This document shows positions 7,691-64,000 of a stretch of DNA of 64,000 bases, in pieces (the stretch's first letter is position 1; each line of letters begins with the position of its first letter). This stretch comes from a bacterium (lineage in GTDB: Bacteria > Krumholzibacteriota > Krumholzibacteriia > LZORAL124-64-63), in the NCBI GenBank assembly GCA_024231905.1, contig JAAEQC010000092.1, positions 88,726 to 152,725 on the forward strand, in the 5' to 3' direction. The notes under the pieces are model-generated. The model was given only the letters and a program-made list of their open reading frames with translations. It was not told where the DNA came from and made no database searches. Both the position numbers and the translations under genes were made by a program.

Positions 7691-7955
7691 AGCTCCATGT
7701 TTCCGTTGCCTGCGGCCCGGATACAATCCAACCTGGACAAGGTTCCCGCCCCTCCGGGAGGCCGGAGATTCAGCGGGCGCCGGACTCGGACCGGCGGTCA
7801 TCGCCCCACCGGACCGCGCCCGGATGACTCGCCGGGCGAGGTCGGGTACCGGTAGCGGCTTGGCCGGTCCCGGGGCCAGCTTGACCATTTTCGTGGACGA
7901 TCCCCGTCCCGGCCAGGAAAAAAGCCGGCGGCGTACCCCAGAAGGAGCATCGAGG

Positions 7956-15324: not shown

Positions 15325-15416
15325 AGCGCATTCCGCGCTAAATTTCCGCTGATCCGGGCCGATGAATGCCGCAGACGTATTCGTTCGTATCCCCGGAAGC
15401 TGAAAAGGAGCGGGGC

Positions 15417-16085
15417 ATGATCACCACCTGCACCGTTTGCCAGGCCCGTTACCGACTCGAAGCCGCCAAGGTCCCGCCGCGCGTCCTGCGCGTCCGTTGC
15501 CCGGACTGCGGGGGCGTCTTCGTCCTCGACGGCACGGCGCCCGTCGCGCCGGAGGAGACCCCCGTGGCCGGTCTGGAAACCGGTTACAGCGCGCCCGCCC
15601 CGGCCGCCCAGGTCGAACAGCCGGCGCCGCCGGTGAGTGCCTACGACGACGTGCCGGTGGCAACTCCGGCGACCGTCGAGCCCCCTGCGCCCGAGCCCGT
15701 CCCGGAGGACGAGCCCGCTGTCGCCGCCACCCCGCCTGCGTCCGCCCCGGTGGAAAGCCCGGTCTCCGAGGCCCCGGCTGCTGTGGTCGATACCGCCCCC
15801 GCCGCGGTGGCCACCGCCGAAGCCGAACCGGCCGCCCCGACGCGCCGCCGCCGCTCCAAGGAGGAGATGCTGGCCCGGGCTCTGGTGTCGGACATCCTGG
15901 TCTACAACCGCGAATTGCGGGATACGGCCCTGGCCGAGGGGAACCTCCTGGAGGCCCTGGGCGCCGAGATCAAGAAGTCCTGGGAATTGTACAAGGAGAA
16001 GGTTACGCCCGAAGTGGCCAACAGCACCAACCACTTCCGCGAGGCCTTGAACGAGATCCTGGCCGAAGGCGAGAAGGTCTTCTAG
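15417..16085 (+). CDS. MJ0042-type zinc-ribbon protein with Pro/Ala-rich linker and conserved-looking C-terminal helical domain
   Basis: ATG 15417 with AAGGAG upstream. CTVC...CPDC zinc ribbon in the first 35 aa. A low-complexity P/A/E linker of about 120 aa. C-terminal EEMLARALVSDILVYNRELRD... Confidence 0.6.
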   Translation: MITTCTVCQARYRLEAAKVPPRVLRVRCPDCGGVFVLDGTAPVAPEETPVAGLETGYSAPAPAAQVEQPAPPVSAYDDVPVATPATVEPPAPEPVPEDEPAVAATPPASAPVESPVSEAPAAVVDTAPAAVATAEAEPAAPTRRRRSKEEMLARALVSDILVYNRELRDTALAEGNLLEALGAEIKKSWELYKEKVTPEVANSTNHFREALNEILAEGEKVF

Positions 16086-16619: not shown

Positions 16620-16849
16620 GGATCCGCTCCCGGCGGTGTCGTGGCCATGGATAGCGCCGGACGGCCTGCGCGGACCGTCGGCGGGAACATCTTCGTGAGC
16701 ACGTCCCTTATGCAAGATGCTTGCCGTTTCCACGCTTCCGTGGGAATACCGGTCCAGTTTCGCAGAGGTGGCACGCGCTTTGCAGAAATGTTCGCACAAG
16801 GCGCGGAAACGCGCAATGCGCAGTCTGGAACGGGAATCGAGGGACCACG

Positions 16850-17713
16850 GTGGCGGAAATCGCGACGACAGCGGTCAGGACTTGCCGCCTGCTCTACTAC
16901 GGAGCCACGGGCGTGGGCAAGCGTGAGAACCTCAGCCTGATCCATCGGACCATCCCGCCCGAGTCCCAGCTCAGCCTGGCCGTGGAGGATCCGGAGCGGC
17001 AGATCGCCTTCCGGTTCAACCAGCCCGAGGGCGACTCCTGGCAGGTGCTCGTGCAGGCGATCGACGCCGGGCGCGAGCGTCCGCGAGCCGCGGGCATGGT
17101 CGAAAGGCCTCCATTCGACGCCGTGGTGTTCGCCGTGGATTCCGGTGCGGCCCACCTGGACCAGAGCCTGTCGGCCTTCGAGGCCCTCAAGAACTACCTG
17201 GACAGCTGGGGCCGGGACCTCTTGGAAGTGCCCGTCGTCCTCCAGTACAACCGTCGCGCGGCGTCCGATGCCCTGCCGGTCGACCGTCTCGAGAGCCTGC
17301 TCAACCCCTGGGGACTCCTGTCCTTCCCGGCCGATTCGGCCAAGGGGGAGGGCGTACGCGAGACCCTCAAGTCCATCCTGGGATTGGCCATCAATCATCT
17401 CAAGGCCCAGCCCGAGCCCGAACCCGAACCGGCCCCTGCGGCCAAGGAAGCTTCGCCGACGCCACCGCAGCCCGCGGCGGCCCCGCCGGAGCCCGTGGTC
17501 GAGCCCGTGGAGAACATGGGTCTGGACTACGGCCCGCCGGTTCCGGGCAACGAAGTGACCGCTGCCGCGGCCGAACGTGGCGACGCTATTCTCGACGAGT
17601 TGCGGCCGCCGGTGGTCATTCCGGTGAAGATCCCGCGTCGGCTCCTGGAAGGGGACCGGCCCGTACGGATCCTGCTCGAGGCCCGCATCGTCGACGACGA
17701 CGAAGCCTACTGA
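16850..17713 (+). CDS. MglA-like small Ras-superfamily GTPase homologue with degenerate G motifs and C-terminal extension
   Basis: GTG 16850 places the P-loop at the same distance from the N-terminus as in MglA. RLLYYGATGVGKRENL, FDAVVFAVDS, VPVVLQYNRRA and GEGVRETLKSILGLAI are collinear with remembered MglA blocks. A PEPEPEPAP linker is followed by a tail of about 70 aa. Confidence 0.65.
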   Translation: MAEIATTAVRTCRLLYYGATGVGKRENLSLIHRTIPPESQLSLAVEDPERQIAFRFNQPEGDSWQVLVQAIDAGRERPRAAGMVERPPFDAVVFAVDSGAAHLDQSLSAFEALKNYLDSWGRDLLEVPVVLQYNRRAASDALPVDRLESLLNPWGLLSFPADSAKGEGVRETLKSILGLAINHLKAQPEPEPEPAPAAKEASPTPPQPAAAPPEPVVEPVENMGLDYGPPVPGNEVTAAAAERGDAILDELRPPVVIPVKIPRRLLEGDRPVRILLEARIVDDDEAY

Positions 17714-29281: not shown

Positions 29282-31858
29282 TCAGTCGCGGGGCAACCCG
29301 CGATGATCGACACGATCCCTCCCTGCTTGAGCAAGAAGAGGACCGTTGGTCGTTTTTTCTTTCAACTCTTTGATATGTAACAACATGGCGGTCATGTCGT
29401 CACCCTCGCCACCCTGCCCGAAGTGTCTGACCTCGGTAAAAATCGCGTCGAGGAGATCCTGTGGAGCGACATCTGCGCGGCTGGACACGGCGGCCATGAG
29501 GCGTTCCTCGTCGTAGAATTCACCCGCGTCGTTGCGCTGATCGGCCAAACCGTCCGTGCGCAGGAAGAGGCGGTCGCCCCCCTGGAGGGTGAGCGCTCCT
29601 TCCCGGTACGCATGATCCGCCACGGCTCCCAGGACGGGCCCCCCTTTTCGCAGGATGTCGTACCAATCCTGGCCCTGCCGGAAGAGGACCGGTGGATCCA
29701 TGCCCGCGTTGCAGTAGCGCAAGAGGCCCGATTCAGGTTCCCAGATGGCGCAGAAGAAGCAAACGAAACGACCCGGCGCGATGTGGGCGCCCAGGGCGGC
29801 GTTGAGGCGGTTCGCCACCGCCGCCGGGCGCAGGCGCGCCTCGGCCTCCCGGCGGAAGCCGGTGCAGAGGGAGGTCATGAGCAGGGCCGCGGGGATGCCC
29901 TTGCCCGCCACGTCCGCGATGGCCAGGACCAGGCTGCCGTCCTCGCGCAGGAAGAAGTCGAAGAAGTCGCCGCCCACGCGCCGGCTGGGCTCGTGCCGGC
30001 CGGCCACCACGAAGCGGGGCGTTTCCAGCGGACCCACGGGCAACAGGCTCGACTGGATACCCCGGGCCACCTCGATCTCCGTCTCGAGCTTCTGGCGCTG
30101 CAAGCTGTCGTGGTAGAAGTGCCGGCTCTCCAGGACCGAAGCGGCCTGGACCGCCAGAACCCTCAGGTTGGCCAGGTCCTCCTGGGTGTAGAGGATGTCG
30201 CCCCGCTTGGGACCGAAGGCCAGGAAACCCACCAGCCGGTTGCCGCCCACCAAGGGGACGGCCAGAAGGGCGCCGGAGCGGGTCAACGTGGCCAGGGAAT
30301 CGGCGTCACTGCCGGTGCCCAGGAGCAGGTCTTCCAATTCCTCGGTGAAGACGGGTCGGCGCAGGCGGTGGAGCAGGCGGGCCAGGGCGCTGGCCGGAGA
30401 CAGGGCGTCCTGGCCGCCGTTCGTGCCCAGGACCTGCAGCGGTTGGTCCGGCCCCTCGCTCAGGTAGAGCGCGAGTCGTTGCGGGCGGTAGAGCTCCGTG
30501 AGGCTGTCCAGCAATTCGGTGGCCATGTCCTCGGTGGCAACCAGGCTGCTGAGCCGGTCGGCGAGGGCGACCATGGCTCGACGGTGAACCTGCCGTTCCG
30601 GGTAGAAGGCGCGGTCGATCCAGCCCTGGACCGCCTGGCGCAGGGGCTGGATGACCAGTCCGCCACCGGCGGCGATGGCCAGGAGCACGGGGAAGGTCGA
30701 GACGTTGAAGGTCCGCGCCAGGGCTGTGCCCAGGACGACCACCCCGGCGAAGTAGCCAGCCAGCAGCAGGAGCGTCAGGGCGCCGTAGACCAGGCCGGTA
30801 CGGACGATGAACGTGCGGTCGATGGCGCCGTAGCGCAGGATGGCCAGGGCGAAGCTGCTGGGCACGAGGATCACCGATAGGCTCAGATACTGCACGGGAC
30901 CGGCGATGCGCACGGGGGTGGCCTCGCCCACCAGCACCACGCCCAGGAAGGGGACCAGGCCCAGCAGGAGCCCGCCGAACACCACCAGCAGCTTGGTACG
31001 CTGGATCGGGCGATCCTTGCGCACGGCGTGACGGGCGAAGATGACGAGCCCGGTGAGCACGAAGGTGAGCATGTAGAAGAGGATCACCGTCCCCAGGATC
31101 ATCTCCACCGGGCTGCCGGCCGGGGCCGGGTGCCAGATCTCGTTGGCGGCGGAGGCCAGCAAGAGTACGGCCGCGGGCAGGAAGAGCAGCGGCGCGCGCG
31201 GCCCCGCCCAGCGCGGTCCCAGGCGGCGGCCCCCGCCCGGGAACCCCAGGAAGAAGCGCAGGAAGAAGGCAGGCAGCAGCAGTTGCAGCAGGAGACGCAG
31301 GTACTCCTTGGCATACATGTAGACCGTGTCGTCCAGGTCGGGCACGTCCACCAGGAAGAACGCGAAGATGAAGCAGAGAGAGAAGAAGGTGCGCGTCACC
31401 GGATCGTCGCGCCTCCACAGCACCCACCAGCCGATGGCCAGGAAGCTCAAGCCCACGGTCCACAGGCAGTAGTGGCGGATCATGGTGGGCTGGTCCGGGG
31501 AACCCTGCGGCACGGAGATTTCGACCACCTCCACCGCGCGGGTCAATACCAGACCCAGGGCCACGGCTTGCCGGTCATTGGCCATGGCCGAATAGTATTC
31601 CCGCATGTCGGCCACGGGGCGGTCGCCGACGGTGGCGATGCGATCACCCACCTGCATGCCGGCCTGATCGGCAGGGCCGCCCGGTCGAACCGTCACGACC
31701 TCGAGCCGATGAACGGCAAAGCCGCGGTCCTGGCGTTCGGCGATGTGGATGGCCACGGGCAGGGAGAGGGCTACGAGCGCCGGGGCCAGGAGAAACAGGC
31801 CCAGGCGGCGCAGGAGCGCGCGATGGGGGCGGGCGGTCTGGTGAAGCGATCGGTTCAT
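29282..31858 (-). CDS. membrane-bound PP2C/SpoIIE-family phosphatase with periplasmic PDZ, multi-TM block and GAF domain
   Basis: PDZ-like VVTVRPGGPADQAGMQVGDRIATVGDRPV after the first TM. About 8 hydrophobic segments. GAF-like LLAVPLVGGNRLVGFLAFGPK. SpoIIE motifs RVGGDFFDF, IADVAGKGIPAALLM and LRTDGL. Confidence 0.8.
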   Translation of the reverse strand: MNRSLHQTARPHRALLRRLGLFLLAPALVALSLPVAIHIAERQDRGFAVHRLEVVTVRPGGPADQAGMQVGDRIATVGDRPVADMREYYSAMANDRQAVALGLVLTRAVEVVEISVPQGSPDQPTMIRHYCLWTVGLSFLAIGWWVLWRRDDPVTRTFFSLCFIFAFFLVDVPDLDDTVYMYAKEYLRLLLQLLLPAFFLRFFLGFPGGGRRLGPRWAGPRAPLLFLPAAVLLLASAANEIWHPAPAGSPVEMILGTVILFYMLTFVLTGLVIFARHAVRKDRPIQRTKLLVVFGGLLLGLVPFLGVVLVGEATPVRIAGPVQYLSLSVILVPSSFALAILRYGAIDRTFIVRTGLVYGALTLLLLAGYFAGVVVLGTALARTFNVSTFPVLLAIAAGGGLVIQPLRQAVQGWIDRAFYPERQVHRRAMVALADRLSSLVATEDMATELLDSLTELYRPQRLALYLSEGPDQPLQVLGTNGGQDALSPASALARLLHRLRRPVFTEELEDLLLGTGSDADSLATLTRSGALLAVPLVGGNRLVGFLAFGPKRGDILYTQEDLANLRVLAVQAASVLESRHFYHDSLQRQKLETEIEVARGIQSSLLPVGPLETPRFVVAGRHEPSRRVGGDFFDFFLREDGSLVLAIADVAGKGIPAALLMTSLCTGFRREAEARLRPAAVANRLNAALGAHIAPGRFVCFFCAIWEPESGLLRYCNAGMDPPVLFRQGQDWYDILRKGGPVLGAVADHAYREGALTLQGGDRLFLRTDGLADQRNDAGEFYDEERLMAAVSSRADVAPQDLLDAIFTEVRHFGQGGEGDDMTAMLLHIKELKEKTTNGPLLAQAGRDRVDHRGLPRD

Positions 31859-53703: not shown

Positions 53704-53746
53704 CGCCGGGTCGAGGGACGCGACGGTGCCGTCCGGGAGGACGGCC

Positions 53747-56029
53747 GTGAATCTCGCCCAGTTGCTGGACACCCTCAAGGCAGACGACCGCTTCATCCGT
53801 CACGTCACCCGCTGGGAACGGATCCCGGCTGCGGCGGGGCGCTACGCCGATTTTCCGGCGGGACTGGATCCGCGCCTGGAGAAAGTGCTGCGTGGCCGCG
53901 GCGTCGACCGGCTCTACAGCCACCAAGCGGCGGCGGTGAACCATGCCCTGGCGGGGGAGTCGGTGGTGGTGCCCACGCCCACGGCCTCGGGCAAGACCCT
54001 CTGCTACAACCTGCCGGTGCTGGACCGCATCCTCCGCGAGCCGTCGGCTCGCGCTCTCTACCTCTTCCCGACCAAGGCCCTGGCCCAGGACCAGATGCAC
54101 GAAGTGCACGGCCTGGTGCAGGACCTGGGCGTGGATATCAAGACCTTCACCTTCGACGGGGATACGCCTGAGACCGCTCGCCGGGCCATCCGCAGCAGCG
54201 GCCACATCGTGGTCACCAATCCGGATATGCTGCACCAGGGCATCCTGCCCCACCACACTTTGTGGGTGAAGCTCTTCGAGAACCTGCGTTACGTGGTGGT
54301 GGACGAGGTGCATCAGTACCGGGGCGTCTTCGGCAGTCACGTGGCCAACGTGCTGCGGCGTCTGCGGCGGGTGGCCGATTTCTACGGGGCGTCGCCCCAG
54401 TTCATCTGCTGTTCGGCCACCATCGCCAACCCGCGGGAACTGGCCACGCGCCTGACGGGCATGGACGTGGCCGAGGTGGCCGAGAACGGCGCACCGCGGG
54501 GTGAGAAGCACTTCGTATTCTACAACCCGCCGGTGGTGAACGCGGAGCTGGGCATTCGCCAGTCGGTGATCAAGACCACACGCCGCATCGCCGAGCGATT
54601 CATGGGCGCCGGCAGCCAGATGATCATCTTCGCCCGCAGCCGTATGCGGGTCGAACTTCTCCTGACCTACCTGGAGAAGGCGGGACGCAAGGTCGGCATC
54701 AAGAGCGGGGAAGTGCGGGGCTACCGGGGCGGCTACCTGCCCGGCGAGCGGCGAGCCATCGAACGCGGACTCCGAGACGGTTCCGTGGGTACGGTGGTCT
54801 CCACCAACGCCCTCGAACTGGGCATCGACATCGGTCGTCTGGACGTATGCGTCATGGCGGGCTACGCCGGCACCGTGGCCAGCACCTGGCAGCAGGCGGG
54901 CCGAGCAGGTCGCCGACAGGATCTGAGCGCAGTGGTCCTCGTGGCGTCCAGCAGCCCCGCCGACCAGTATGTGATCAACAATCCGGATTTCTTTTTCGGA
55001 CGCAGCCCGGAACACGCGACCCTGGATGCGGATAACCTCGTTATCCTCATGAGTCACTTGAAGTGCGCTGCCTTTGAGCTGCCCTTCCTGACCGAGGAGC
55101 GCTACGGCGGCCAGCGGGTGGACGAGATCCTCGAGTACCTGGTGGAACAACGGGTCCTGCACCGCAGCGGCGACCGCTACCACTGGATGACCGACACCTA
55201 CCCCGCCGAGGATGTCAGCCTCCGCAGCGCCGCGCCGGAGAATGTGGTCATCATCGACCAGTCGCGGCCCGGCGGGCGGATCATCGGCGAAATGGACCTC
55301 TTCAGCGCCCAGGAAATGCTCCACGACGAAGCTGTCTACATCCACGGTGCCCAGCAGTACCACGTGGACAATCTGGACTGGGAGCGACAGGAGGCCCACG
55401 TCCAGCCTGTGACAGTGGACCACTATACGGACGCCCAGCGCAAGAGCGAGTTGAAGACCCTCACCGCCGAGGAGAGCCGTCCTCTGCACACGGGAACGGC
55501 GGCCCTGGGCGAAGTGGGGCTGGTCTCCAAGGTCACGGTCTACAAGAAGATCAAGCTGGGCACCCACGAGAACGTGGGGGCTGGCCGGGTGCATCTGCCC
55601 GAGATGGAGATGCACACCACGAGCTTCTGGTGGGAACTTCCGGAGGATACGCCGGAGGATCTGGCCGCCGCGGGGCTGGACCTGGGCGACGCTCTCAAGG
55701 GCCTGGCTCATCTGCTGGGCCGAGTGGCGCCGGTCTTCGTCATGGCCGATCCTTCGGACCTCCACGCGACGGCCATGGTCCGCTCGCCGTTCACGGGCAA
55801 GCCCACGCTCTATCTCTACGACGCCTTTCCTGGTGGTGTCGGTTTCTCGCGCCGCATCTTCGACCAGTTTGAGGAAATCGCCGCCGCCGCCCGGACCCAC
55901 GGCCGGGCCTGCGGTTGCGGCGCCGGCTGTCCCGCCTGCGTGGGGCCGGCGGTGGAGTCGGGGAGCACAGCCCGCAACGGAGCGGTGCGCCTGCTGGATG
56001 CCCTCCTGGCCGACGCCGCCGAGGCCTGA
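53747..56029 (+). CDS. mrfA: DEAD/DEAH-box helicase with C-terminal Cys-rich DUF1998 domain (MrfA/YprA-like)
   Basis: GTG 53747 with GGGAGGA 5 nt upstream. VPTPTASGKTLCY (motif I), VVDEVHQYRG (DEVH), VSTNALELGIDIG, and C-terminal CGCGAGCPACVG. Confidence 0.75.
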   Translation: MNLAQLLDTLKADDRFIRHVTRWERIPAAAGRYADFPAGLDPRLEKVLRGRGVDRLYSHQAAAVNHALAGESVVVPTPTASGKTLCYNLPVLDRILREPSARALYLFPTKALAQDQMHEVHGLVQDLGVDIKTFTFDGDTPETARRAIRSSGHIVVTNPDMLHQGILPHHTLWVKLFENLRYVVVDEVHQYRGVFGSHVANVLRRLRRVADFYGASPQFICCSATIANPRELATRLTGMDVAEVAENGAPRGEKHFVFYNPPVVNAELGIRQSVIKTTRRIAERFMGAGSQMIIFARSRMRVELLLTYLEKAGRKVGIKSGEVRGYRGGYLPGERRAIERGLRDGSVGTVVSTNALELGIDIGRLDVCVMAGYAGTVASTWQQAGRAGRRQDLSAVVLVASSSPADQYVINNPDFFFGRSPEHATLDADNLVILMSHLKCAAFELPFLTEERYGGQRVDEILEYLVEQRVLHRSGDRYHWMTDTYPAEDVSLRSAAPENVVIIDQSRPGGRIIGEMDLFSAQEMLHDEAVYIHGAQQYHVDNLDWERQEAHVQPVTVDHYTDAQRKSELKTLTAEESRPLHTGTAALGEVGLVSKVTVYKKIKLGTHENVGAGRVHLPEMEMHTTSFWWELPEDTPEDLAAAGLDLGDALKGLAHLLGRVAPVFVMADPSDLHATAMVRSPFTGKPTLYLYDAFPGGVGFSRRIFDQFEEIAAAARTHGRACGCGAGCPACVGPAVESGSTARNGAVRLLDALLADAAEA

Positions 56030-56031
56030 TC

Positions 56032-57186
56032 TTGGATCTCCGCAAACGTCTTGCCCGGCTGGATCCCGGCCATAGGGAACCGGCGACCATGCCGGCGGCG
56101 GTTGAGCGCACGGCGGCGGAGTTTGGCCTGGAAGAGAAGGTCATGCCCGAGGGCACGATCTGGCGCCGGCGCTGCCCGGCTGTCCTGCCACCACCGGACC
56201 TGCCGGATCTGGCGGGCTTCCTGTCCCGCCACGAAACAGCCGCGCGTACCGCCGCGGATCTACTCTTTCTGGACACAGAGACCACCGGCCTGGCCGGCGG
56301 CACGGGCACGGTCCCCTTCCTGGTGGGGCTCGCCTGGTGGGACGGCGCCGATTTCGTAGTCGAACAGATCTTCCTGCCGGGACCGGCTCACGAGGGTGCC
56401 CTGCTGGCGGCGGTGGCCGAGGCGGCGTCCCATCGTCGCGTGGTGGTCACCTACAACGGTGCCAGTTTCGACCTGCCTTTGCTGCGGACCCGCGCCCTGC
56501 TCCAGCGGCATCCTTCTCCGGTGGCCGAGCTGGCCGGCTGGGATCTGGTGGTCCCGGCGCGGCGCCTCTGGTCCAGGAGCCTGCCCGACTGCCGGCAACA
56601 GACGGTGGAGGTGGAAGTGTACGGCCGGCCCCGGGGCGAGGGCGATATTCCCGGCGGCCGCATTCCCCAGGTATGGTTCGATTTCCTGGCCGAGGGCCGG
56701 GCGGACCTGCTGCCGGCGGTTCTGCGCCACAACCGCCGCGACATGGAGGGCATGGGACGTATCCTGGGAGCCGTGTGCGAGGCCGCGGCCGGCCTGGACC
56801 GGCCGGAAGACGTGGCCGCCTGGCGCGACGCCTGGTCCCGGGCGCGCATCTGCAGCCTGCGCGGTGACCACCACCGGGCGGCCGCTTGGTTGGCCCGCTC
56901 CCGGGAAGCAAAGCCGGCCGCGGGACACGCGCCCCTGGTGGCCGACGGCGTGCGCATGCTCAAGCGGCTCCGGCATTGGCCGTCGCTGGCTGACCTGATC
57001 ACCGCCGCCTTGGCGGCGGGCCTGGACGAGCCCTGGCTCCACGTGGAGGCCGCCATGCTCTACGAGCACCGCCTGGTCGATCTGGAGCGGGCCCTTGCGC
57101 ACGCGAGGGCGGCGGGCGATGATCGTCGGACGGCGCGGCTGGAACGCCGTTTGTCCGGGACGACACGGGAGGAGGAACGACCATGA
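56032..57186 (+). CDS. mrfB: RNase H-fold (DEDD-type) exonuclease with C-terminal TPR-like region (MrfB/YprB-like)
   Basis: Probable TTG 56032, 2 nt after the helicase stop (an alternative ATG lies at 56089). LLFLDTETTGL, VVTYNGASFDLPLL, HNRRDM and a helical repeat tail. Confidence 0.6.
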   Translation: MDLRKRLARLDPGHREPATMPAAVERTAAEFGLEEKVMPEGTIWRRRCPAVLPPPDLPDLAGFLSRHETAARTAADLLFLDTETTGLAGGTGTVPFLVGLAWWDGADFVVEQIFLPGPAHEGALLAAVAEAASHRRVVVTYNGASFDLPLLRTRALLQRHPSPVAELAGWDLVVPARRLWSRSLPDCRQQTVEVEVYGRPRGEGDIPGGRIPQVWFDFLAEGRADLLPAVLRHNRRDMEGMGRILGAVCEAAAGLDRPEDVAAWRDAWSRARICSLRGDHHRAAAWLARSREAKPAAGHAPLVADGVRMLKRLRHWPSLADLITAALAAGLDEPWLHVEAAMLYEHRLVDLERALAHARAAGDDRRTARLERRLSGTTREEERP

Positions 57187-57611
57187 GTCGCATGACCAGG
57201 GACGAGGGCCATCTCGTGGTGGCCGGGATCCGGGTGTTGGTCCACAGCCTGGGCCGGGGACCGACACCGGACGAGTTGGCTGAACTGCTGGGCCTGGCCT
57301 CGGGCTCGGTGCGCCTGCAGCTGGTGGCGCTGGCGGAGCTGGGGGCGGTGGCCATGGTCGAGAGCGCCTTCGAGACCCACGCCGAGGTGCGCGATTACGG
57401 GCGCCTGGAGGAGTTGTCCGAGGAGGGCGGTCCGGCCATCACCGACGACCTCAAGGCCTTCGACGAGAAGAAGCGCCAGGAGACCGAGCGCATGTCCCAG
57501 CTATTCGAGTCCGGCGAGCAGGAAGATCGGCTCAAGGAGAAACACCGGCAGATGGACCAGGAATTAGAGTCGTTCCGGAAGCAGAAACCGGAGAACCCCT
57601 TCGGGGACTGA
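57183..57611 (+). CDS. hypothetical protein, winged-helix-like N-terminus and charged coiled-coil C-terminus
   Basis: ATG 57183 overlaps the upstream stop (ATGA). PTPDELAELLGLASGSVRLQLVALAELGAV, then a K/E/Q-rich tail. Confidence 0.5.
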   Translation: MSRMTRDEGHLVVAGIRVLVHSLGRGPTPDELAELLGLASGSVRLQLVALAELGAVAMVESAFETHAEVRDYGRLEELSEEGGPAITDDLKAFDEKKRQETERMSQLFESGEQEDRLKEKHRQMDQELESFRKQKPENPFGD

Positions 57612-59501: not shown

Positions 59502-59759
59502 GACTGACGACCTCTCGGCAGGTTGGCGGTACGACATACGTGGGCGACAGGGGTTGCGGCCGACCGACCCCGACGCGGAGACAGTCCCCCAAAATGGTGC
59601 AAAAGGCGGCAATCCACAAGTTCGCCGTTGCTCCGGTAGACAGAAACCCCGGATGGGAATGTCCATGTAGCCCGACCGGGCCATGGTGTAGAATGGGGCA
59701 CCGCGGTAGCCCGGCATCCGGCCGGGCCGCGCGGATCATGGCCAGGAGGTCCCGTCCCC

Positions 59760-60188
59760 ATGCTCCATCCCGGTATCATGGCCCTGGCCGCGGGACTCGC
59801 CGCCCAGGTGGCGAAGGTCCCGGTGGAACTGGTTTTGCGCCGCCGCTGGCGACCCCTGGCGGTCCTCGAGAACGGGGGCATGCCCAGTTCTCACACGGCC
59901 ACCGTCACGACCCTGACGCTGGCGGTCCAGCGGGCCGAAGGCTGGGATTCGTCCATCTTCAGCCTCGTGCTCGTATTCTCCTTCTTCGTCATTCTCGAGG
60001 CCACCGGCCTGCGCCAGGAGATCGGGCACCAGGCCCAGATCCTTAACGAGATGATGGACCGGGCTCTGGCCGGCGGCGGTGTGGACCGGAAGCGCCTACG
60101 TGAACTGGTGGGCCATACCTGGACCGAGGTGGCCGGCGGACTTGCCTTCGGTGTGCTCTTCACATTGATCTGGTGGCGTCTCGAGTAG
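59760..60188 (+). CDS. divergent PAP2-family membrane protein (DUF212)
   Basis: GGMPSSHTATVTTL, EATGLRQEIGHQA and VGHTWTEVAGG signatures. 142 aa. Confidence 0.8.
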   Translation: MLHPGIMALAAGLAAQVAKVPVELVLRRRWRPLAVLENGGMPSSHTATVTTLTLAVQRAEGWDSSIFSLVLVFSFFVILEATGLRQEIGHQAQILNEMMDRALAGGGVDRKRLRELVGHTWTEVAGGLAFGVLFTLIWWRLE

Positions 60189-60226
60189 GTATTCGAATAA
60201 AATAATGAATTCATTAAAACCAGGGG

Positions 60227-60254
60227 TTGACAGAGGGGTTTCATCGCGTATGAT
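60227..60254 (+). promoter_or_regulatory. near-consensus sigma-70-type promoter upstream of ParA-CBM gene
   Basis: TTGACA (60227-60232), 16-nt spacer, TATGAT (60249-60254). About 110 nt upstream of ATG 60364. Confidence 0.55.
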
Positions 60255-60363
60255 CCGTCCAACAGGGTCGTCGGGCAGGAGGCCCAGACGCCTTTCGACA
60301 TAGATTCCGCAGTCCGGCCGCGAGCCGGATCGAGGGTTCCCTCATGCGTCGAAAGGATTCGAT

Positions 60364-61437
60364 ATGAGGATCATCGCCCTGGCCAACCAGAAAGGTGGAT
60401 GCGCGAAGACCACGACGGCCACCAACCTCGCCGCCGCTCTCGCCGCCGCCGACAAGAGAGTCCTGCTCGTCGACAACGATCCGCAGGGACATGCCACCCT
60501 GGCCTTCGGTTTCAGGGAACGCGACTTCTCCCTTTCCACATACGATCTCTACCTCACGTCGGACATCCTCGTGGAAGACGCGTTCCTGGAGGCAGGCGAC
60601 AACCTGCAACTGGTGCCGGCCGGCGTCGAGTTGTCGGCCGTCGAACAGGCCCTGGCCCGCGAGGAGGACAAGGAACTGCGCCTGCGGAATAAGCTGCGGC
60701 GGAGTGCCATGCCCTTCGACTACGTGCTCATCGACTGTCCGCCGGCGGTGGGTCTGCTCACCTTCAATGCGCTCCTGGCGGCGGGGGAGGTGATGATCCC
60801 GGTGGATCCGAGCTACTACGGCCTGCAGGCCGTGCGCAAGATGCGGGAGACCCTGACGCTGTTGCGCGAACGGCGCGGCCACGACGCCATTCCCCACATC
60901 CTCATGGCCGACTTCGACACGCGGCCACGCTTCGTGCGGTCGCTCATGGCCGAGCTCGAGGAGCTGTACGAGGGCGACCTGATGGACACGATCATCCACC
61001 ACACGGTCCGCTTCAAGGAGGCGGCCGGAGCGGGCGTGCCGTTGCTCCATTACGACGCCGAGTCTCGGGGCGCCGTGGATTTCCGGCTCCTGGCGCGGGA
61101 ACTGCTGGCCGAGGAGCAGGACGTGAGTGTCACGGCAGTGGACCGCTGGGCGACCTTGCTCCACGGTCCGCGCACCACCGAGGGTGGCCTGGCCTTCGAG
61201 GCCGACTTCCCCCGGGCCAAGACCGTGCGCATCACCGGATCGTTCTGCGACTGGTCTGCCCAGGGGATCCCCCTGGAGCGACGCGAGGACGGCATCTGGT
61301 CCTGTCGCCTGCAACTGGATCGCGGCGACCACGAGTACCGCTACATCGTGGACGGGGCCTGGTTGCCGGATCCGCACAACGAGGCCACGGCTCCCAACGA
61401 GTTCGGCGGCGCCAACAGCGTTTGCGTCGTGCCTTGA
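60364..61437 (+). CDS. ParA/MinD-family ATPase fused to C-terminal CBM48/AMPK-beta-like glycan-binding (E_set) domain
   Basis: AAGGA RBS. Deviant Walker A NQKGGCAKTTTATNLAAAL, then VLLVDNDPQG and VLIDCPP. The C-terminal approximately 85 aa read VRITGSFCDWSAQGIPLERREDGIWSCRLQLDRGDHEYRYIVDGAWLPDPHN...GGANSV. Confidence 0.8.
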   Translation: MRIIALANQKGGCAKTTTATNLAAALAAADKRVLLVDNDPQGHATLAFGFRERDFSLSTYDLYLTSDILVEDAFLEAGDNLQLVPAGVELSAVEQALAREEDKELRLRNKLRRSAMPFDYVLIDCPPAVGLLTFNALLAAGEVMIPVDPSYYGLQAVRKMRETLTLLRERRGHDAIPHILMADFDTRPRFVRSLMAELEELYEGDLMDTIIHHTVRFKEAAGAGVPLLHYDAESRGAVDFRLLARELLAEEQDVSVTAVDRWATLLHGPRTTEGGLAFEADFPRAKTVRITGSFCDWSAQGIPLERREDGIWSCRLQLDRGDHEYRYIVDGAWLPDPHNEATAPNEFGGANSVCVVP

Positions 61438-62132
61438 ACCGGGATCCGCTACGCAACGCGGCGGGAGGACGGCAGACCTCCCGCCGCGGACCTCACGAAC
61501 GTTCCCACCACATCGCCGACGTGGCCCACCATTTCCTGGCCGACGCCCGGACCGAAGCGCCGTGCATCTTCGTGGCCGGACCGGCGGCGGGGACCGGATT
61601 GGCCCTGGAACTGGCGGCGGGTTGGGCCCGGGCCGCCGGCGGGACGGTCGGATTCGTGGATTCGGCTCCGGCGGCGGCGGAAATCGAGGCCGAACGGTTG
61701 ACCGGTGTCGTGCGCCGGGCTCCGGATGATCCCGACCGGCCCGGGGAGAGCGCCCTCTTCTGGCACCTGGGCCATCCGGACCGCCGACGCCTGGACGATC
61801 TGGACGCCGTGGGCCGCGTACCCGGCGCCGGACTGCCGGGCCTCGGACGGCGGCGTCGGATCCTCTGGTGCGTGGCACCAGGTGTCGCGGATGCGTGGCA
61901 CCCGCTCATCGGTCTGGGACGACTGACGGGTGCCCTGCACACCGGCGGTACGGCACTGGTTGTCGGACCGGGCAACCGGGCGGCGACCGAACTCGAAAGT
62001 ATCCGTGCCCGGGCCGGCGCCGCCATCGGCGATGATGCGAGTCTCGTGATCCTACCGGAAGCGGCGCGACCAGGGGCCCGGGCGGCGACCCTCGCTGGTC
62101 TGCCGGCACTGCTGTTTCCCGCGACACCTTGA
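61422..62132 (+). CDS. hypothetical protein, possibly a ParA/MinD-fold paralogue with lysine-less P-loop
   Basis: High GC3 in this frame. Overlaps the ParA-CBM 3' end by 16 nt (start uncertain). CIFVAGPAAGTGLALELAAGWARAAGGTVGFVDS is collinear with IIALANQKGGCAKTTTATNLAAALAAADKRVLLVDND. Confidence 0.4.
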   Translation: MRRALNRDPLRNAAGGRQTSRRGPHERSHHIADVAHHFLADARTEAPCIFVAGPAAGTGLALELAAGWARAAGGTVGFVDSAPAAAEIEAERLTGVVRRAPDDPDRPGESALFWHLGHPDRRRLDDLDAVGRVPGAGLPGLGRRRRILWCVAPGVADAWHPLIGLGRLTGALHTGGTALVVGPGNRAATELESIRARAGAAIGDDASLVILPEAARPGARAATLAGLPALLFPATP

Positions 62133-62249
62133 AGCTTTTTGCTGTGGACCGGTCTCCCCGGAGAGCCTAGGCTCCATCCGTTGTTCCGGTCCCGGCGCCA
62201 CTGACGGCGCCGGGCCGCACCCGGCCTTCTTCCGTACTCCGGGAGGACC

Positions 62250-62807
62250 ATGTTCCGCGCGACCCTGCCGAGACTTGTCGCCCTGGCATTGATTCCAGCC
62301 TGCGTCCTGGTTGCCGTCGCCGCCGCCGACGACGAACCGCTGCGTTACACCCTGGGCGAGCCGGGCTATCTCGTCCTGGCGGGCGCGGCCGACAGCACCG
62401 ACGTCTACATCTGGCAGGACGGACCGGGCGAGGGGCGCCGGTCCCTGGTCTGGGACGAGGGCATGCTCACGGTCCCGGCCGATCTGGTGGGCGAGACCTA
62501 TGGCCGCCACGACCTGGGCTTCCCCTGCGGCGCGACCCTGGCGGGCAACGGACGCGGCGGACGCCTCGTCTTCGAACCCGGCACCTTCCCCATCGACGAA
62601 CCGCTGCGCCTGGGCGACGGTTCGCTCGACTTCTACGCCGCCGACGGGGAACTGGAGATCCGCGCCGGCCGCATCCGCTACAGCCGCGCGGCCAGCCGCC
62701 AAAAGGACCCGCGGGCCTCGTTCATCATGCTGGCCGGTATGGTGGTGCTGACGGTGGTGCTCCTGCGCCGGGCGCGCCGGACACGAGAGTCGGGCAGAGG
62801 ACGTTGA
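62250..62807 (+). CDS. exported hypothetical protein with C-terminal TM segment plus Arg-rich tail
   Basis: Signal peptide LVALALIPACVLVAVAAA|DDE. C-terminus DPRASFIMLAGMVVLTVVLLRRARRTRESGRGR. Confidence 0.5.
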   Translation: MFRATLPRLVALALIPACVLVAVAAADDEPLRYTLGEPGYLVLAGAADSTDVYIWQDGPGEGRRSLVWDEGMLTVPADLVGETYGRHDLGFPCGATLAGNGRGGRLVFEPGTFPIDEPLRLGDGSLDFYAADGELEIRAGRIRYSRAASRQKDPRASFIMLAGMVVLTVVLLRRARRTRESGRGR

Positions 62808-64000
62808 ACACCCCAGCGATCGTCCGCCGGCTGTTGGCCGGGATGCTCTTGACCCTGCCCTGGGTGGGGATGGGAGTGGGGCGGCTTGTCACCGGCCGCG
62901 ACCTGGGCTTCGGACTACAACCCGCCTGGTTCCTTCTCGGCGCCGCGGCGGTGCCGCTGCTGTTCGCCGTGCGCCCAGAAGACATCCGCTCCTGCCTGCC
63001 CCGGTCCTGGCTGGTTTTTGCCGGCGCGGCGGTGGCCGCCCTGGCCCTGTCGGCCCTGGGATTGCGCATCGCTCCGGTCCAGGAGGAGTCGGCCGTGGTG
63101 GCCGGGCGTTTTCTGCGGCAGGTCGTCCAGCTGGGACTCATGGCCGCCTTCCTCGTCCTGCCGGCCTGCTGGGTGCGGGGGACTGCGCGCTGGCGCTTCA
63201 CGGCCCGCTGGCTGGTGGCGGGCGCCTGGCTGCAGGTGGCCTATGCGGGCCTCCAGTATCTCCACTGGCACCACCCGGGAACGCTCCTGCCTGCCCTGGA
63301 GCAGATCTTCACTTCCAACCCGGCCATCCTCAGCGGATCGGAGCAGCTCCACGTGGGTGACGGCTTCCGGGACATGCCCCGTCTGCGGGGGACCATGTGC
63401 GAGCCCCTGTACCTGGGAAACTACCTGCTGGCGGTACTGCCGCTGGTGTCGCTCGCCGGGTGGAACCGCTGGCTCTCCCGGGCCACGACCCTCCTGCTGG
63501 CGGTGGTGCTGCTGCTGACCTGGTCCCGCGGCGCATGGGCGGCCGGAGCGGTGGCGGGCCTGGTCGCACTGGTCTTGGCCCGTGGTCGCTGGCGTCGGCC
63601 GGGTCGGTCGGTGCTTCTGGGATCCGTGGCGGCGGTGGTGGTGCTGGCGGTGGCCCTGGGTCCGGACCGCTTGCTGCTGCCCTGGGAACGACTGATCCAG
63701 AGCCTCAGCACCCGCGACTGGTCCAATCTCACCCGGCTCTACAGTTTCCAGGCGGCTTGGCGGGCCTTCCAGCTCAGCCCTGCCGTGGGTGTGGGTTGGG
63801 GGCAATTTGCCTGGCATTTTCCGGTGCTGGTGGACCCCATGGGACTGCAGAGCCAGTTCACCTGGCCGGTGGTCAACAGTTTCCCCCTGCGGGTCCTCTG
63901 CGAAACCGGACTGGTGGGCTTCGGTGTGTTCGCCGGGGCGGCGGCCGCGATTGTGCGGCAGGTGGCAAGGGCGGTGCGCCGGCCGGACGTGGATCCGGAG
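62804..64000 (+). CDS. O-antigen ligase / polymerase family (Wzy_C-like) membrane protein, 3' end outside window
   Basis: Not in the ORF track because no stop is reached. I translated frame 2 by hand and found it open from TTG 62804 (TTGA overlap; alternative ATG 62843) to base 64000. Motifs LLLTWSRGAW, GVGWGQF and VNSFPLRVLCETGLVG. Many TM segments. Confidence 0.7.
   Translation, partial: MNTPAIVRRLLAGMLLTLPWVGMGVGRLVTGRDLGFGLQPAWFLLGAAAVPLLFAVRPEDIRSCLPRSWLVFAGAAVAALALSALGLRIAPVQEESAVVAGRFLRQVVQLGLMAAFLVLPACWVRGTARWRFTARWLVAGAWLQVAYAGLQYLHWHHPGTLLPALEQIFTSNPAILSGSEQLHVGDGFRDMPRLRGTMCEPLYLGNYLLAVLPLVSLAGWNRWLSRATTLLLAVVLLLTWSRGAWAAGAVAGLVALVLARGRWRRPGRSVLLGSVAAVVVLAVALGPDRLLLPWERLIQSLSTRDWSNLTRLYSFQAAWRAFQLSPAVGVGWGQFAWHFPVLVDPMGLQSQFTWPVVNSFPLRVLCETGLVGFGVFAGAAAAIVRQVARAVRRPDVDPE

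Follow-up and report, generated by a model that had tools for sequence, protein, structure and literature searches.

A ParA-type ATPase fused to a CBM48 module and encoded beside a variable partner gene: a candidate system for organizing alpha-glucan granules

Within the 64-kb window considered here (that is, the whole stretch of DNA that was analyzed), a single gene encodes a deviant Walker-A ATPase, and that same gene contains the only CBM48-like segment of the window (Table 1). The fusion of a ParA-type ATPase to a CBM48 domain, noted from the sequence in a preliminary description, is thereby confirmed. Examination of the ORF revealed the motifs NQKGGCAKTT (residues 8-17), DNDPQG (residues 37-42) and VLIDCPP (residues 121-127), as well as a C-terminus ending in GGANSVCVVP. 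As such, the complete deviant Walker-A ATPase described earlier for residues 1-250 was recovered, together with the sequence quoted for it and all three motifs. The codon bias of the ORF (GC1/2/3 of 0.69/0.44/0.87) indicates this to be a real gene. Upstream, an AT-rich intergenic island includes a promoter-like site some 110 nt 5' of the ATPase start that agrees with the consensus at 11 of 12 hexamer positions and is the sole match in 4.4 kb (shuffled sequences gave a mean of 0.3). A GC hairpin found 3' of the ATPase stop was considered as a conserved regulatory element and rejected, since it is not kept in related loci.

Table 1. Features of the locus that holds the fusion gene (positions are those of the window).
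Feature	Position	Strand	Description and basis
Sigma70-like promoter, TTGACA-16-TATGAT	60227..60254	+	Predicted; consensus match only
ParA-CBM48 fusion gene	60364..61437	+	357 aa, ATG start; Pfam/NCBIfam, AF2 model, PDB matches
Soj/ParA-type ATPase domain, residues 1-250	60364..61113	+	Pfam, Foldseek, residue mapping
Flexible interdomain linker, residues 251-269	61114..61170	+	AlphaFold pLDDT <50 at 253-266
CBM48/AMPK-beta-type beta-sandwich, residues 270-356	61171..61431	+	Pfam, AlphaFold model, PDB alignment
Partner gene	61422..62132	+	236 aa from TTG 61422; open frame, conserved motif; no known family
Partner N-terminal peptide HHIADVAHHFL, residues 29-39	61506..61538	+	Motif conservation; putative role
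Conserved small membrane protein	62250..62807	+	185 aa, signal/TM at both ends; no Pfam match; operon membership uncertain
Wzy_C (O-antigen-ligase-like) membrane protein	62804..64000	+	Cut by window end; membership uncertain

Two of the checks proposed in the preliminary description, namely a profile scan of both domains and a structure prediction, bore out the two-domain architecture. AAA_31, CbiA, AMPK1_CBM and CBM_48 all scored above the curated Pfam cut-offs, at levels well outside what chance would give, and the AlphaFold model (pLDDT 87.8) presents two well-folded domains separated by a low-confidence linker (residues 253-266). The C-terminal module, earlier said to begin at about residue 273, is indeed a genuine domain, although its start lies at about residue 270 when judged by structure. 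In an alignment of 78 family members, from which all conservation counts given below were taken, the spacer between reference residues 249 and 285, a longer stretch than the linker listed in Table 1, ranges from 25 to 62 residues. In all 78 members, the chain ends 0-8 residues past the CBM, and thus lacks a C-terminal membrane helix of the MinD type.

In the ATPase portion, AAA_31 was matched over residues 1-170 (E 6.9e-47) and CbiA over residues 4-226 (E 2.8e-16), with the CBP_BcsQ model covering the whole domain (E 2.8e-14). A PDB sequence search with residues 2-249 returned Myxococcus xanthus ParA (8RAY; E 6e-50, 36% identity) along with Soj, and a Foldseek comparison of the domain with 8RAY gave a target TM-score of 0.93 and an rmsd of 1.8 A. 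McdA and BcsRQ structures were also found among the Foldseek neighbors; in sequence, the similarity of McdA to the fusion over the N-terminal part is modest (E about 1e-13). The signature lysine K10, as well as K15, T16, D37, D39 and the Walker B aspartate D124 (of VLID), are kept in 78/78 members, with D37 and D39 (Motif 2, Walker A') aligning with D58 and D60 of M. xanthus ParA. By motifs and fold, the fusion thus belongs to the ParA/MinD deviant Walker A superfamily. The family also bears marks of its own, namely an invariant His43 where M. xanthus ParA presents the Motif-2 asparagine N64, and a near-invariant Cys13 that yields KGGCAKT rather than KGGVGKT. With these motifs intact, the protein may be expected to form an ATP-bound sandwich dimer.

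R216 and K218 occupy the canonical DNA-binding position. R216 is the equivalent of M. xanthus R238, replacement of which (R238E) abolished non-specific DNA binding (PMC12462528). Position 218 is K/R in 76 of the 78 members and position 216 in 64, so that a basic patch formed by the two residues would be predicted to mediate binding to DNA or the nucleoid. Position 216 is alanine in 13 members, however, and DNA binding may therefore not be universal in the family. Residues Y81/E82/D110 of the ParB-peptide pocket in M. xanthus ParA correspond to Y60/D61/E89 of the fusion; the latter, like R216, are kept in the Krumholzibacteriota members.

The pattern of a glycogen-binding E_set/CBM48 module, recognized early on in the C-terminal part, was upheld by profiles and PDB matches alike. 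AMPK1_CBM matched residues 285-356 (E 2.3e-12; 47.4 bits against a cut-off of 26.8) and CBM_48 matched residues 282-336 (E 4.7e-7; 30.5 bits against a cut-off of 22.4), and a PDB sequence search with residues 285-354 returned the CBMs of AMPK beta1/beta2 (E about 2e-8), SEX4, a pullulanase and GlgB. All solved relatives of the module are alpha-glucan binders. In a library of 1.8 billion proteins, the nearest CBMs belonged to AMPK1_CBM/CBM48 arrays, in one case joined to GH57. To our knowledge, every characterized module of the CAZy family CBM48 binds alpha-glucans. The preliminary description had also pointed to the sugar-binding residues as deserving inspection. Residues W100/K126/W133/G147/N150 of AMPK-beta1 align with W297/R326/W333/G348/N351 of the fusion; W297, W333 and G348 are found in 78/78 members, as is R/K at position 326, and N/D occupies position 351 in 76/78. 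In AMPK-beta1, glycogen binding is lost in the W100G and K126Q variants and persists in weaker form in W133L and G147R (PMC6274970). By profile and sugar-contact residues, the domain is accordingly a CBM48/AMPK1_CBM module, for which alpha-glucan binding is predicted.

The fusion is not peculiar to this assembly. Rather, it recurs in over 200 protein clusters, which come from Krumholzibacteriota (the phylum of the window), Omnitrophota, Myxococcota, Acidobacteriota and other phyla, with members from different phyla sharing 33-44% overall identity. Given that full-length fusions of the same length are present in hundreds of independent assemblies, an origin as a chimera or through a frameshift was rejected. 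In a rough neighbor-joining tree, which included two canonical Soj/ParA sequences, the fusions stood apart from these and from all but one CBM-less relative. Current annotations of family members go no further than 'AAA family ATPase' or 'chromosome partitioning protein', and a search of the literature for ParA together with glycogen, CBM48 or AMPK1_CBM yielded nothing relevant. The earlier remark that no ParA system for glycogen granules had been described thus stands, and the fusion and its partner appear to be uncharacterized so far.

In five lineage groups, the fusion gene is adjacent to a partner gene, otherwise poorly conserved, whose product contains a strongly conserved basic/amphipathic N-terminal peptide; in two Thermodesulfobacteriota-type contexts examined, no adjacent partner was present. 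As such, the system would comprise at least two components, and the proposal that cargo recognition is built into the ATPase holds in part, the CBM being real but the account incomplete. In the window, the partner gene has an alternative TTG start at 61434 that shares the sequence TTGA with the ATPase stop. The codon bias of this gene is weaker (GC3 of 0.74), although the frame is open nonetheless. In its product, a basic tail at the N-terminus leads into a conserved helix, predicted at residues 31-40. A regular-expression search detected motifs of the HHIADVAHHFL type directly 3' of the fusion gene in 18 loci, with a QHIS variant in three loci (L001, L002 and L005). The motif is kept in nearly all Krumholzibacteriota loci checked, and its columns show a top-residue frequency of 0.76, as compared to 0.41 elsewhere in the partner.

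Outside the peptide, the partners vary by lineage, being soluble and possibly NTPase-like in some cases and consisting of a TM segment and a beta-domain in others. The Omnitrophota partner is a predicted membrane protein, the bulk of which is probably periplasmic, an odd arrangement for the adaptor of a cytoplasmic granule and one that counts against the granule reading developed below. The window partner found no match in Pfam, NCBIfam or a PDB profile search. The idea, formed by eye, that it is a degenerate ParA was abandoned when hhalign against a ParA profile gave a probability of 1%. An AF2 model of the partner (pLDDT 72) resembled the SIMIBI NTPases SRP54/FtsY, HypB, Get3 and MinD (TM 0.45-0.52; E about 5e-4), yet because 56 of the 61 aligned sequences were of the Myxococcota type, for which homology to the window partner is unproven, a SIMIBI-like fold is tentative. 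A single motif common to all phyla, suggestive by eye, was likewise rejected, since an HMM built from Krumholzibacteriota and Myxococcota partners did not recover those of other lineages and leave-one-lineage-out tests succeeded in only two of five lineages; similarity of the peptide between phyla is thus not statistically established. By analogy, the peptide is proposed to resemble ParA-activating peptides and to interact with and activate the ATPase.

The genomic surroundings of the pair differ between lineages. In Omnitrophota, the gene order is Alginate_exp porin, GH57, TM partner, ParA-CBM, small membrane proteins and epimerase; in four contigs GH57 lies upstream of the fusion with only the partner gene between them, and in a fifth contig GlgC, scoring above its curated cut-off, lies 3.5 kb from the pair. 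In Krumholzibacteriota, the fusion and partner genes are followed by genes for the small membrane protein, Wzy_C (with which a glycan cluster begins), GT4, a WecA-like transferase and a methyltransferase, all on one strand and with short gaps or overlaps. No glycogen genes were detected in the 64-kb window, which counts against the granule reading. In its favor, starch/glycogen hydrolases are reported to abound in a Krumholzibacteriota genome (PMC10936416).

It is proposed that the pair forms a two-gene orphan ParA module, in which a tether switched by ATP would join alpha-glucan to the nucleoid and thereby organize glycogen granules, a reading that we hold tentatively and judge to fall somewhat short of probable. 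The computational results concern the architecture, the intact catalytic and sugar-binding residues, the recurrence of the fusion, the lack of ParB/parS (see below) and the partner with its conserved peptide; from these we infer the cargo, the DNA binding and the dynamics of the module. In such a scheme, the ATP-bound ATPase would form the usual sandwich dimer, settle on the nucleoid via the R216/K218 basic patch, and display two CBM48 modules on flexible tethers of 25-62 residues. Two CBMs per ATP dimer would confer avidity for glycogen-like alpha-1,4/1,6-glucan particles, much as the MinD helix is switched by dimerization. Then, if ParB, McdB and MinE are a guide, the basic/amphipathic N-terminal peptide of the partner would stimulate hydrolysis of the bound ATP, and the tether would let go. 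Through such a cycle, the nucleoid would retain cytoplasmic granules of alpha-glucan (glycogen), which would be set out at intervals along its length and divided between the daughter cells. A wider claim is doubtful, namely that ATP-driven dimerization switches on bivalent polysaccharide binding in what would be the first dedicated partition or positioning system for glycogen-like granules, widespread in Krumholzibacteriota, Omnitrophota, Myxococcota and Acidobacteriota, with glycan serving as a third ParA/MinD surface beside DNA and membrane, and with a new, fast-evolving partner family bearing a ParB-like activating peptide.

That the cargo is an alpha-glucan granule, as first suggested from the sequence, is favored by GH57 and GlgC beside some relatives, yet here too we infer the cargo, and the pair in its own phylum heads the Wzy_C/GT4/WecA-like cluster. 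This cluster points to envelope glycans and so keeps alive a rival account, in which the ATPase would serve, in a spatial or regulatory role, a machine that assembles envelope polysaccharides, as BcsQ does in cellulose secretion and the ParA-like CpsD/Wzc kinases do in capsule synthesis of the Wzy-dependent type. Recruitment of the ATPase to a membrane complex would fall to the partner, which in Omnitrophota is anchored in the membrane, and the CBM would hold a cytoplasmic glucan primer or intermediate. The single-strand gene order in Krumholzibacteriota, the porin-to-epimerase order in Omnitrophota, the match of CBP_BcsQ over the whole ATPase and the presence of BcsRQ among the structural neighbors all agree with such a role. 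By contrast, BcsQ and BY-kinases are far more distant from the ATPase than chromosomal Soj/ParA is: the ATPase scored 81.8 bits with the BcsQ model TIGR03371 (cut-off 157.85) and 33.5 bits with the BY-kinase model TIGR01007 (cut-off 108), no bcs genes were seen in any context, and the C-terminal tyrosine cluster of BY-kinases is absent, the C-terminus being the CBM. Moreover, the whole Krumholzibacteriota region is syntenic, unrelated housekeeping genes included, such that adjacency to the glycan cluster is weak evidence, and the fusion gene has a promoter-like site of its own. Neighbors of the fusion in Myxococcota and in the L086- and L081-type loci are unrelated to envelope glycans, Wzy-type polymerization is periplasmic whereas the CBM is cytoplasmic, and the characterized CBM48 modules known to us bind alpha-glucans, with which the PDB matches are consistent. 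On balance, the envelope account is considered unlikely.

Alternatively, alpha-glucan could be a surface or a metabolic signal and not the cargo. The CBM would then station the ATPase on glycogen or regulate it there, as in AMPK, thereby linking spatial organization to carbon-storage status, and the partner would carry the real cargo or target, such as a complex in the membrane or a factor for division or segregation. A C-terminal surface-binding element of this kind mirrors the membrane helix of MinD, the partners vary between lineages outside the peptide, as cargo adaptors do, and the basic residue at position 216 is lost in some clades. The CBM of AMPK is, moreover, a documented glycogen sensor (PMC2642990; PMC6274970). 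Against this, the DNA-binding basic residues are kept in most members and no third-party cargo candidate is conserved across phyla. Bacterial glycogen particles, being small and dispersed, would also offer a poor positional matrix. Such an arrangement is thus regarded as decidedly unlikely.

It was also considered that the beta-sandwich has been co-opted for protein-protein or other non-glucan binding and that an unrelated cargo is positioned, given that glucan binding by this CBM is predicted from sequence and that E-set/CBM48-like folds sometimes serve protein contacts; residues 68-123 of AMPK-beta1, for example, bind debranching enzyme independently of glycogen binding (PMC6274970). Nonetheless, the family shows no variation at W297, W333 and G348 and has R/K throughout at position 326, in the face of the low overall identity between phyla. 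Such retention of glycogen-contact residues is hard to explain without sugar binding and leaves co-option with little chance of being correct.

The relation of the fusion to partition systems was addressed in several ways. No ParBc domain was encoded within 5-10 kb of the fusion gene in 10 Pfam-annotated contexts, no GERRxR ParB-box was seen beside it in the loci scanned, and a search for centromere-like repeats or iterons in positions 59600-62400 returned only chance-level two-copy repeats. Strict co-occurrence with a parB/parS locus, an objection that the preliminary description had raised against its own proposal, was hence not encountered. A junction-spanning query found no plasmid-borne fusion among 72,556 plasmid records, a negative result that does not extend to two unlisted records with at least 80% query cover in a full-length search, and PADLOC reported no match for the ATPase, the partner or three neighboring genes. 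As the fusion gene also lies in conserved chromosomal synteny, a plasmid or phage partition system and a defence system were rejected. Likewise, the MinD model TIGR01968 gave 51 bits against a cut-off of 213 and no min genes were found nearby, and no carboxysome (ccm/cso) genes were detected in the window or in related loci. Finally, it is very improbable that the fusion is a chromosome-segregation ParA (Soj) with an accessory domain and a ParB encoded elsewhere: the best solved homolog is a chromosomal ParA, and the equivalents of the ParB-pocket and DNA-binding residues are kept in Krumholzibacteriota, but ParB and its box are missing from the surroundings scanned, Cys13 and His43 are signatures of the family's own, the fusions part from both canonical Soj/ParA sequences in the tree, a dedicated non-ParB partner adjoins the gene, and in Myxococcota, which have canonical ParABS (PMC12462528), the fusion is an extra gene, with ParABS being presumed for the MAGs considered here.

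ParA/MinD ATPases are general agents for the placement of chromosomes, plasmids, carboxysomes, chemoreceptor arrays, flagella and the divisome in bacteria. Glycogen is among the commonest bacterial storage polymers, yet very little appears to have been described of how it is organized and inherited. A ParA with a covalent glycogen-binding module whose sugar-contact residues are intact across distant phyla is accordingly a concrete and testable candidate for a granule system, and the pair may be the first dedicated system to organize sugar-storage granules. The proposed avidity switch, relying on two CBMs per ATP dimer, is open to simple biochemistry. Should the envelope-polysaccharide reading prove true, the fusion would represent a new class of regulators of glycan assembly in poorly known phyla. 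On either reading, the ORFan partners of a family of more than 200 clusters merit family definitions of their own.

Comparison with known systems places the proposed granule tether among several precedents. With chromosomal ParA/Soj (8RAY and the Soj proteins of Thermus thermophilus and Helicobacter pylori), the fusion shares its fold, about 36-38% identity over residues 2-249, the signature lysine, the two Motif 2 aspartates, Walker B, the R238-equivalent arginine and most of the ParB-peptide pocket, but differs in having CBM48, Cys13, His43 and an unrelated ORFan partner, and in having no adjacent ParB/parS. Like McdA/McdB, the pair consists of an orphan ParA-type ATPase and an adjacent, fast-evolving and hard-to-detect partner, with a non-DNA cytoplasmic cargo (putative here). 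There, however, McdB binds the cargo, whereas here the ATPase bears the putative cargo module, outside any carboxysome context. Because the ATPase and not the partner would hold the cargo-binding element, the pair offers an instructive design variant. The classical Brownian-ratchet layout, with the activator on the cargo, is not directly applicable to an ATPase that itself binds cargo, a point against the granule tether. MinD is the proposed template for a weak C-terminal surface element that becomes effective once ATP-dependent dimerization doubles it, release being triggered by a MinE peptide; the C-terminus of the fusion is nevertheless a folded CBM on a long linker rather than a lipid-binding helix, and the sequence is nearer to Soj. 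ATPases of the ParA/MinD fold that serve polysaccharide machinery under the control of a small partner are also seen in BcsQ-BcsR and the BY-kinase CpsD, from which the fusion is set apart by the lack of bcs genes and of a tyrosine cluster, by a similarity far below that to Soj, and by a CBM of the alpha-glucan type. The CBM of AMPK-beta (1Z0M and 4YEF, among others) is the best sequence match to residues 285-354, with five aligned sugar-contact residues, yet in the fusion the module is bacterial and cytoplasmic, is borne by a P-loop positioning ATPase and not a kinase scaffold, and mostly carries arginine in place of Lys126. Finally, PhaM of Ralstonia eutropha, which links PHB granules to the nucleoid, exemplifies the outcome proposed here, namely nucleoid-attached storage granules inherited by daughter cells. 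PhaM is unrelated in sequence and is not an ATPase, whereas the system described here would be nucleotide-switched.

The ORF encoding the fusion of a ParA-type ATPase with a C-terminal CBM48/AMPK-beta-like domain lies exactly where the preliminary description had placed it, and its codon bias is typical of the 68% GC host genome (GC3 0.87). When the predicted product was compared to Pfam, AAA_31 (E 6.9e-47) and CbiA covered residues 1-226, and AMPK1_CBM (E 2.3e-12; 47.4 bits vs. a cut-off of 26.8) and CBM_48 (30.5 bits vs. a cut-off of 22.4) spanned residues 282-356. NCBIfam returned ParA, BcsQ, MinD, RepA and similar models, all sub-threshold, together with a weak GlgB N-terminal match to residues 273-330. 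PDB sequence searches matched residues 2-249 to the Myxococcus xanthus chromosomal ParA (8RAY; E 6e-50) and Soj proteins, and residues 285-354 to the carbohydrate-binding modules of AMPK beta1/beta2, the SEX4 glucan phosphatase, pullulanase and GlgB. An AlphaFold model built on 78 aligned family members was confident (pLDDT 87.8), presenting a ParA fold, a disordered linker (residues 253-266) and a beta-sandwich (residues 270-356); 8RAY and Soj occupied the top Foldseek ranks (target TM-scores 0.92-0.95). The two-domain architecture first read by eye is thus confirmed, and by every defining feature tested the fusion belongs to both the ParA/MinD superfamily and the CBM48/AMPK1_CBM family.

Features of the window considered in this analysis
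Feature	Position	Strand	Details
Giant ORF	7824..14399	+	2191 aa; strong coding bias (GC3 0.87)
Zinc-ribbon-like protein	15366..16085		Recognized by eye only
330-aa ORF	16721..17713	+	P-loop-like GATGVGKRE segment
Large membrane signalling protein	29282..31858	-	PDZ, 7TM (HisKA_7TM) region, GAF, SpoIIE-type phosphatase
Helicase and exonuclease	53726..57186	+	Overlapping genes; exonuclease of the RNase_H_2 superfamily
142-aa protein	57183..57611	+	Precedes PpiD
AT-rich island	60185..60260		Contains the candidate promoter
Candidate promoter	60227..60254		Near-consensus sigma70-like TTGACA-16-TATGAT; upstream of the fusion gene
ParA-CBM48 fusion gene	60364..61437	+	ATG start, 357 aa
Partner ORFan	61422..62132	+	Alternative TTG at 61434 overlaps the ATPase stop as TTGA
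Hairpin	61457..61488		Perfect 12-bp GC stem, 8-nt loop; 20 nt past the ATPase stop, inside the partner ORF 5' end

Alignment of the ATPase to 8RAY identified the signature Lys (K10), K15/T16, Motif-2 D37 and D39, and Walker B D124, all invariant among the 78 family members. R216 corresponds to M. xanthus ParA R238, whose replacement by Glu leads to loss of non-specific DNA binding (PMC12462528); 64 of the 78 members have K/R at position 216, and 76 keep the adjacent K/R218. Y60, D61 and E89 align to M. xanthus ParA Y81, E82 and D110, which form the pocket receiving the central Arg of the ParB peptide. Two further residues are family-specific: Walker A (KGGCAKT) has Cys13 in almost every member, and His43 invariably takes the place of the canonical ParA Motif-2 Asn. 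In the CBM, W297, R326, W333, G348 and N351 align to AMPK-beta1 W100, K126, W133, G147 and N150; glycogen binding by AMPK-beta1 is lost on W100G or K126Q substitution and reduced by W133L or G147R (PMC6274970). The sugar-contact residues on which the preliminary description had placed weight are indeed kept, with W297, W333 and G348 being invariant, position 326 always R/K, and position 351 N/D in 76 of 78 members. The spacer between reference residues 249 and 285 varies from 25 to 62 residues. Because the protein stops 0-8 residues after the CBM, there is no MinD-like membrane helix.

The window protein falls among more than 120 clusters at 66-100% identity, all of about 357 aa, with both domains present and with named sources in the Krumholzibacteriota. 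Among matches listed from one-genome-per-species contigs, full-length fusions were found in 22 Krumholzibacteriota species (57-84% identity); in the same contigs, they occur at 33-44% identity in Omnitrophota, Myxococcota, 'Deltaproteobacteria', Acidobacteriota, Thermodesulfobacteriota and a 'Spirochaetales' bin. A profile built from distant members added a further 120 clusters among the matches listed, all with PF16561 and with no annotation beyond 'AAA family ATPase' or 'chromosome partitioning protein'. In a rough (neighbor-joining, midpoint-rooted) tree of ATPase domains, the fusions cluster apart from canonical Soj and, with one exception, from CBM-less relatives having KGGCAKT. This recurrence and grouping show the fusion to be old and maintained, and recurrence in many clusters and several phyla rules out an assembly artefact. 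The exception, a Vulcanimicrobiota ParA without a CBM (locus L039, 8001..9279), is nested among the fusions and may represent an ancestral or secondarily CBM-less state. KGGCAKT is also found throughout a broad set of orphan ParA-only loci (L040-L073) in Omnitrophota, Planctomycetota, Armatimonadota, Bacillota and Poseidoniales archaea, a set chosen by search pattern and so no measure of true extent, where a regex scan detected no ParB-box motif adjoining the gene. A query across the domain junction matched no plasmid record; a full-length plasmid search gave two unlisted records covering at least 80% of the query. PADLOC gave no match. Since every fusion-bearing genome retrieved is a metagenome bin, experiments will require synthetic genes.

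Almost all of the Krumholzibacteriota loci checked have, directly downstream of the fusion, an ORFan of about 180-345 aa, which shares just 20-27% identity between loci whose ATPases are 66-90% identical. Despite this divergence, it always carries an N-terminal R-x-H-H-I-(S/A)-x-(I/V)-A-H-x-F-(L/F) motif preceded by a basic tail, with a top-residue frequency of 0.76 in the motif columns vs. 0.41 elsewhere; AlphaFold predicts a helix at this motif in the window's partner. Downstream ORFans are likewise found in Myxococcota (255-275 aa, starting MPRDL(A/G)DVLHYF) and in Acidobacteriota-type and other loci (with RGLEHVSQLF, RTLRDIAPLF, RGLSDISPMF or EDLREIAKQLF). In four Omnitrophota contigs, the partner lies upstream and has a nearly invariant N-terminus, M(D/N)KK(D/E)IYEHLA(K/N)IYLDASS, after which come a basic stretch, a single TM helix and a beta-rich domain that is divergent; this domain, probably periplasm-facing, gave only a sub-threshold CBM_17_28 hint. 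Locus L086 has an upstream gene of 287 aa with RREIHEQLADVYF, and in L039 the overlapping downstream gene begins MSEKKKLGRGLAEVMDVFF, a ParB-like peptide followed by an apparent winged-helix domain. In the two Thermodesulfobacteriota-type contexts covered (L081/L034 and L043), no comparable adjacent gene was seen.

The partners of these lineages matched no Pfam, NCBIfam or PDB family, and the 61 homologues retrieved by a partner profile are all 'hypothetical'. Inside each lineage, the N-terminal peptide is solidly conserved; similarity between lineages lacks statistical backing. An HMM built from the Krumholzibacteriota and Myxococcota motifs did not retrieve the other lineages' partners, and a Myxococcota-type partner HMM retrieved no Krumholzibacteriota ORF. 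Leave-one-lineage-out models placed the L039 partner at rank 1 and Myxococcota partners at ranks 2, 3 and 6, and recovered no partner in the other three groups; hhalign of Krumholzibacteriota vs. Myxococcota partner profiles yielded an alignment limited to the N-terminal 17 columns (P = 0.07). For the window's partner, AlphaFold gave a model (pLDDT 72), from an alignment of mostly Myxococcota-type sequences, that resembles SIMIBI-class NTPases (SRP54/FtsY, HypB, Get3, MinD; TM 0.45-0.52), tentatively suggesting a degenerate NTPase-like protein; hhalign against a ParA profile was not significant. Adjacency to the ATPase gene, rapid evolution and a short conserved peptide of basic/amphipathic character at the N-terminus together make up a pattern typical of ParA partners such as ParB, McdB and MinE. 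The hairpin at the 5' end of the window's partner ORF has an RNA free energy of -32.3 kcal/mol (z -3.1); strong hairpins occupy the equivalent place in some related loci and are absent from others.

In ParA/MinD ATPases, ATP-driven dimerization confers surface affinity and a partner peptide triggers hydrolysis and release (PMC12462528). The catalytic residues are intact in the fusion, and most members also retain the basic residues of the DNA-binding position; in addition, the C-terminus bears an alpha-glucan-binding-type module on a flexible tether. The best-supported reading, offered tentatively and with every dynamic step being one that we infer, is of an ATP-switched nucleoid-to-glycogen tether reset by the partner. 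The ATP dimer would bridge the nucleoid and glycogen-like particles by means of its two CBMs, which would act as an avidity switch analogous to the MinD membrane helix; the partner would reset the switch via its N-terminal peptide, and granules would thereby be spaced and divided among daughter cells.

The main rival, a BcsQ/CpsD-like role in an envelope-polysaccharide machine, is unlikely, yet draws on gene context. In Krumholzibacteriota, the whole region is syntenic, running PanC, NTP-transferase, HIT, TatA, DEAD/MZB helicase, RNase_H_2 exonuclease, a protein of about 140 aa, PpiD (opposite strand), DUF212, the pair, a small membrane protein, Wzy_C, GT4, a WecA-like transferase and a methyltransferase. 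The pair therefore heads an envelope-glycan cluster; however, because unrelated housekeeping genes are equally syntenic, this adjacency is weak functional evidence. The Omnitrophota context also favors the envelope role, as does membrane anchoring of the partner there; the order Alginate_exp, Glyco_hydro_57, partner, ParA-CBM, MamF/MmsF-like protein and epimerase is conserved in all four contigs (L085, L087, L088 and L089). In a fifth, GlgC, above its curated cut-off, lies 3.5 kb from the fusion. In Myxococcota, an ECF sigma factor, an esterase and a PMM/PGM-type mutase lie downstream and a MerR-family regulator gene directly upstream, 20 nt from the fusion gene (L083, 7564..7980; L084, 281..697); the L081 and L086 types have unrelated neighbors. 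The glycogen-granule cargo proposed earlier is a putative one, favored by the conserved CBM residues and by GH57 or GlgC near some relatives, and weakened by the envelope-glycan context and the lack of any glycogen gene in the window. One published bin of the Krumholzibacteriota is reported to have many starch/glycogen hydrolases (PMC10936416).

It is quite unlikely that the ATPase is parked on glycogen, or takes it as a metabolic signal, while the partner bears the real cargo. The putative cargo module is built into the ATPase as the preliminary description had it; most lineages also have an adjacent partner gene. That the CBM was co-opted to bind a non-glucan ligand is very unlikely. The closest relatives of this CBM in a library of 1.8 billion proteins are tandem AMPK1_CBM/CBM48 arrays, one fused to GH57. 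The CBM query retrieved 8970 representative proteins (E<=1e-3), the top ones (P0302-P0451) with 3-18 tandem copies; among these are many four-copy proteins of about 480 aa, forming a large group, and one 1812-aa protein with 16 Pfam copies. An ordinary chromosomal Soj plus an accessory domain is the least probable reading; no ParBc domain appears in any of ten contexts having precomputed Pfam calls, no ParB-box motif adjoins the gene in the loci scanned, and no iterons surround it in the window, such that strict parB/parS co-occurrence was not seen.

Elsewhere in the window, the giant ORF matched no Pfam family at E<=0.001, and the 330-aa ORF, preceded by the zinc-ribbon-like protein, had no Pfam match. 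The helicase-exonuclease pair is similar to described repair pairs of that composition. Most Krumholzibacteriota loci reaching that far show it in synteny, along with the 142-aa protein between exonuclease and PpiD, for which there were only weak, below cut-off winged-helix-like hints (Sigma70_r3, LexA_DNA_bind); in the related locus L091, the helicase has DEAD, Helicase_C, WHD_HRQ1 and MZB domains.

In agreement with the earlier expectation, full-text literature searches turned up no account of a ParA-CBM48 or ParA-glycogen system, absence there being no proof of absence. The fusion loci tested differ from ParABS in missing the defining ParB and parS, and the fusion lacks the tested defining features of each of MinD, McdAB, BcsQ and the BY-kinases. 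In its outcome, the proposed system would be like PhaM, which acts on PHB granules, but would instead be nucleotide-driven.
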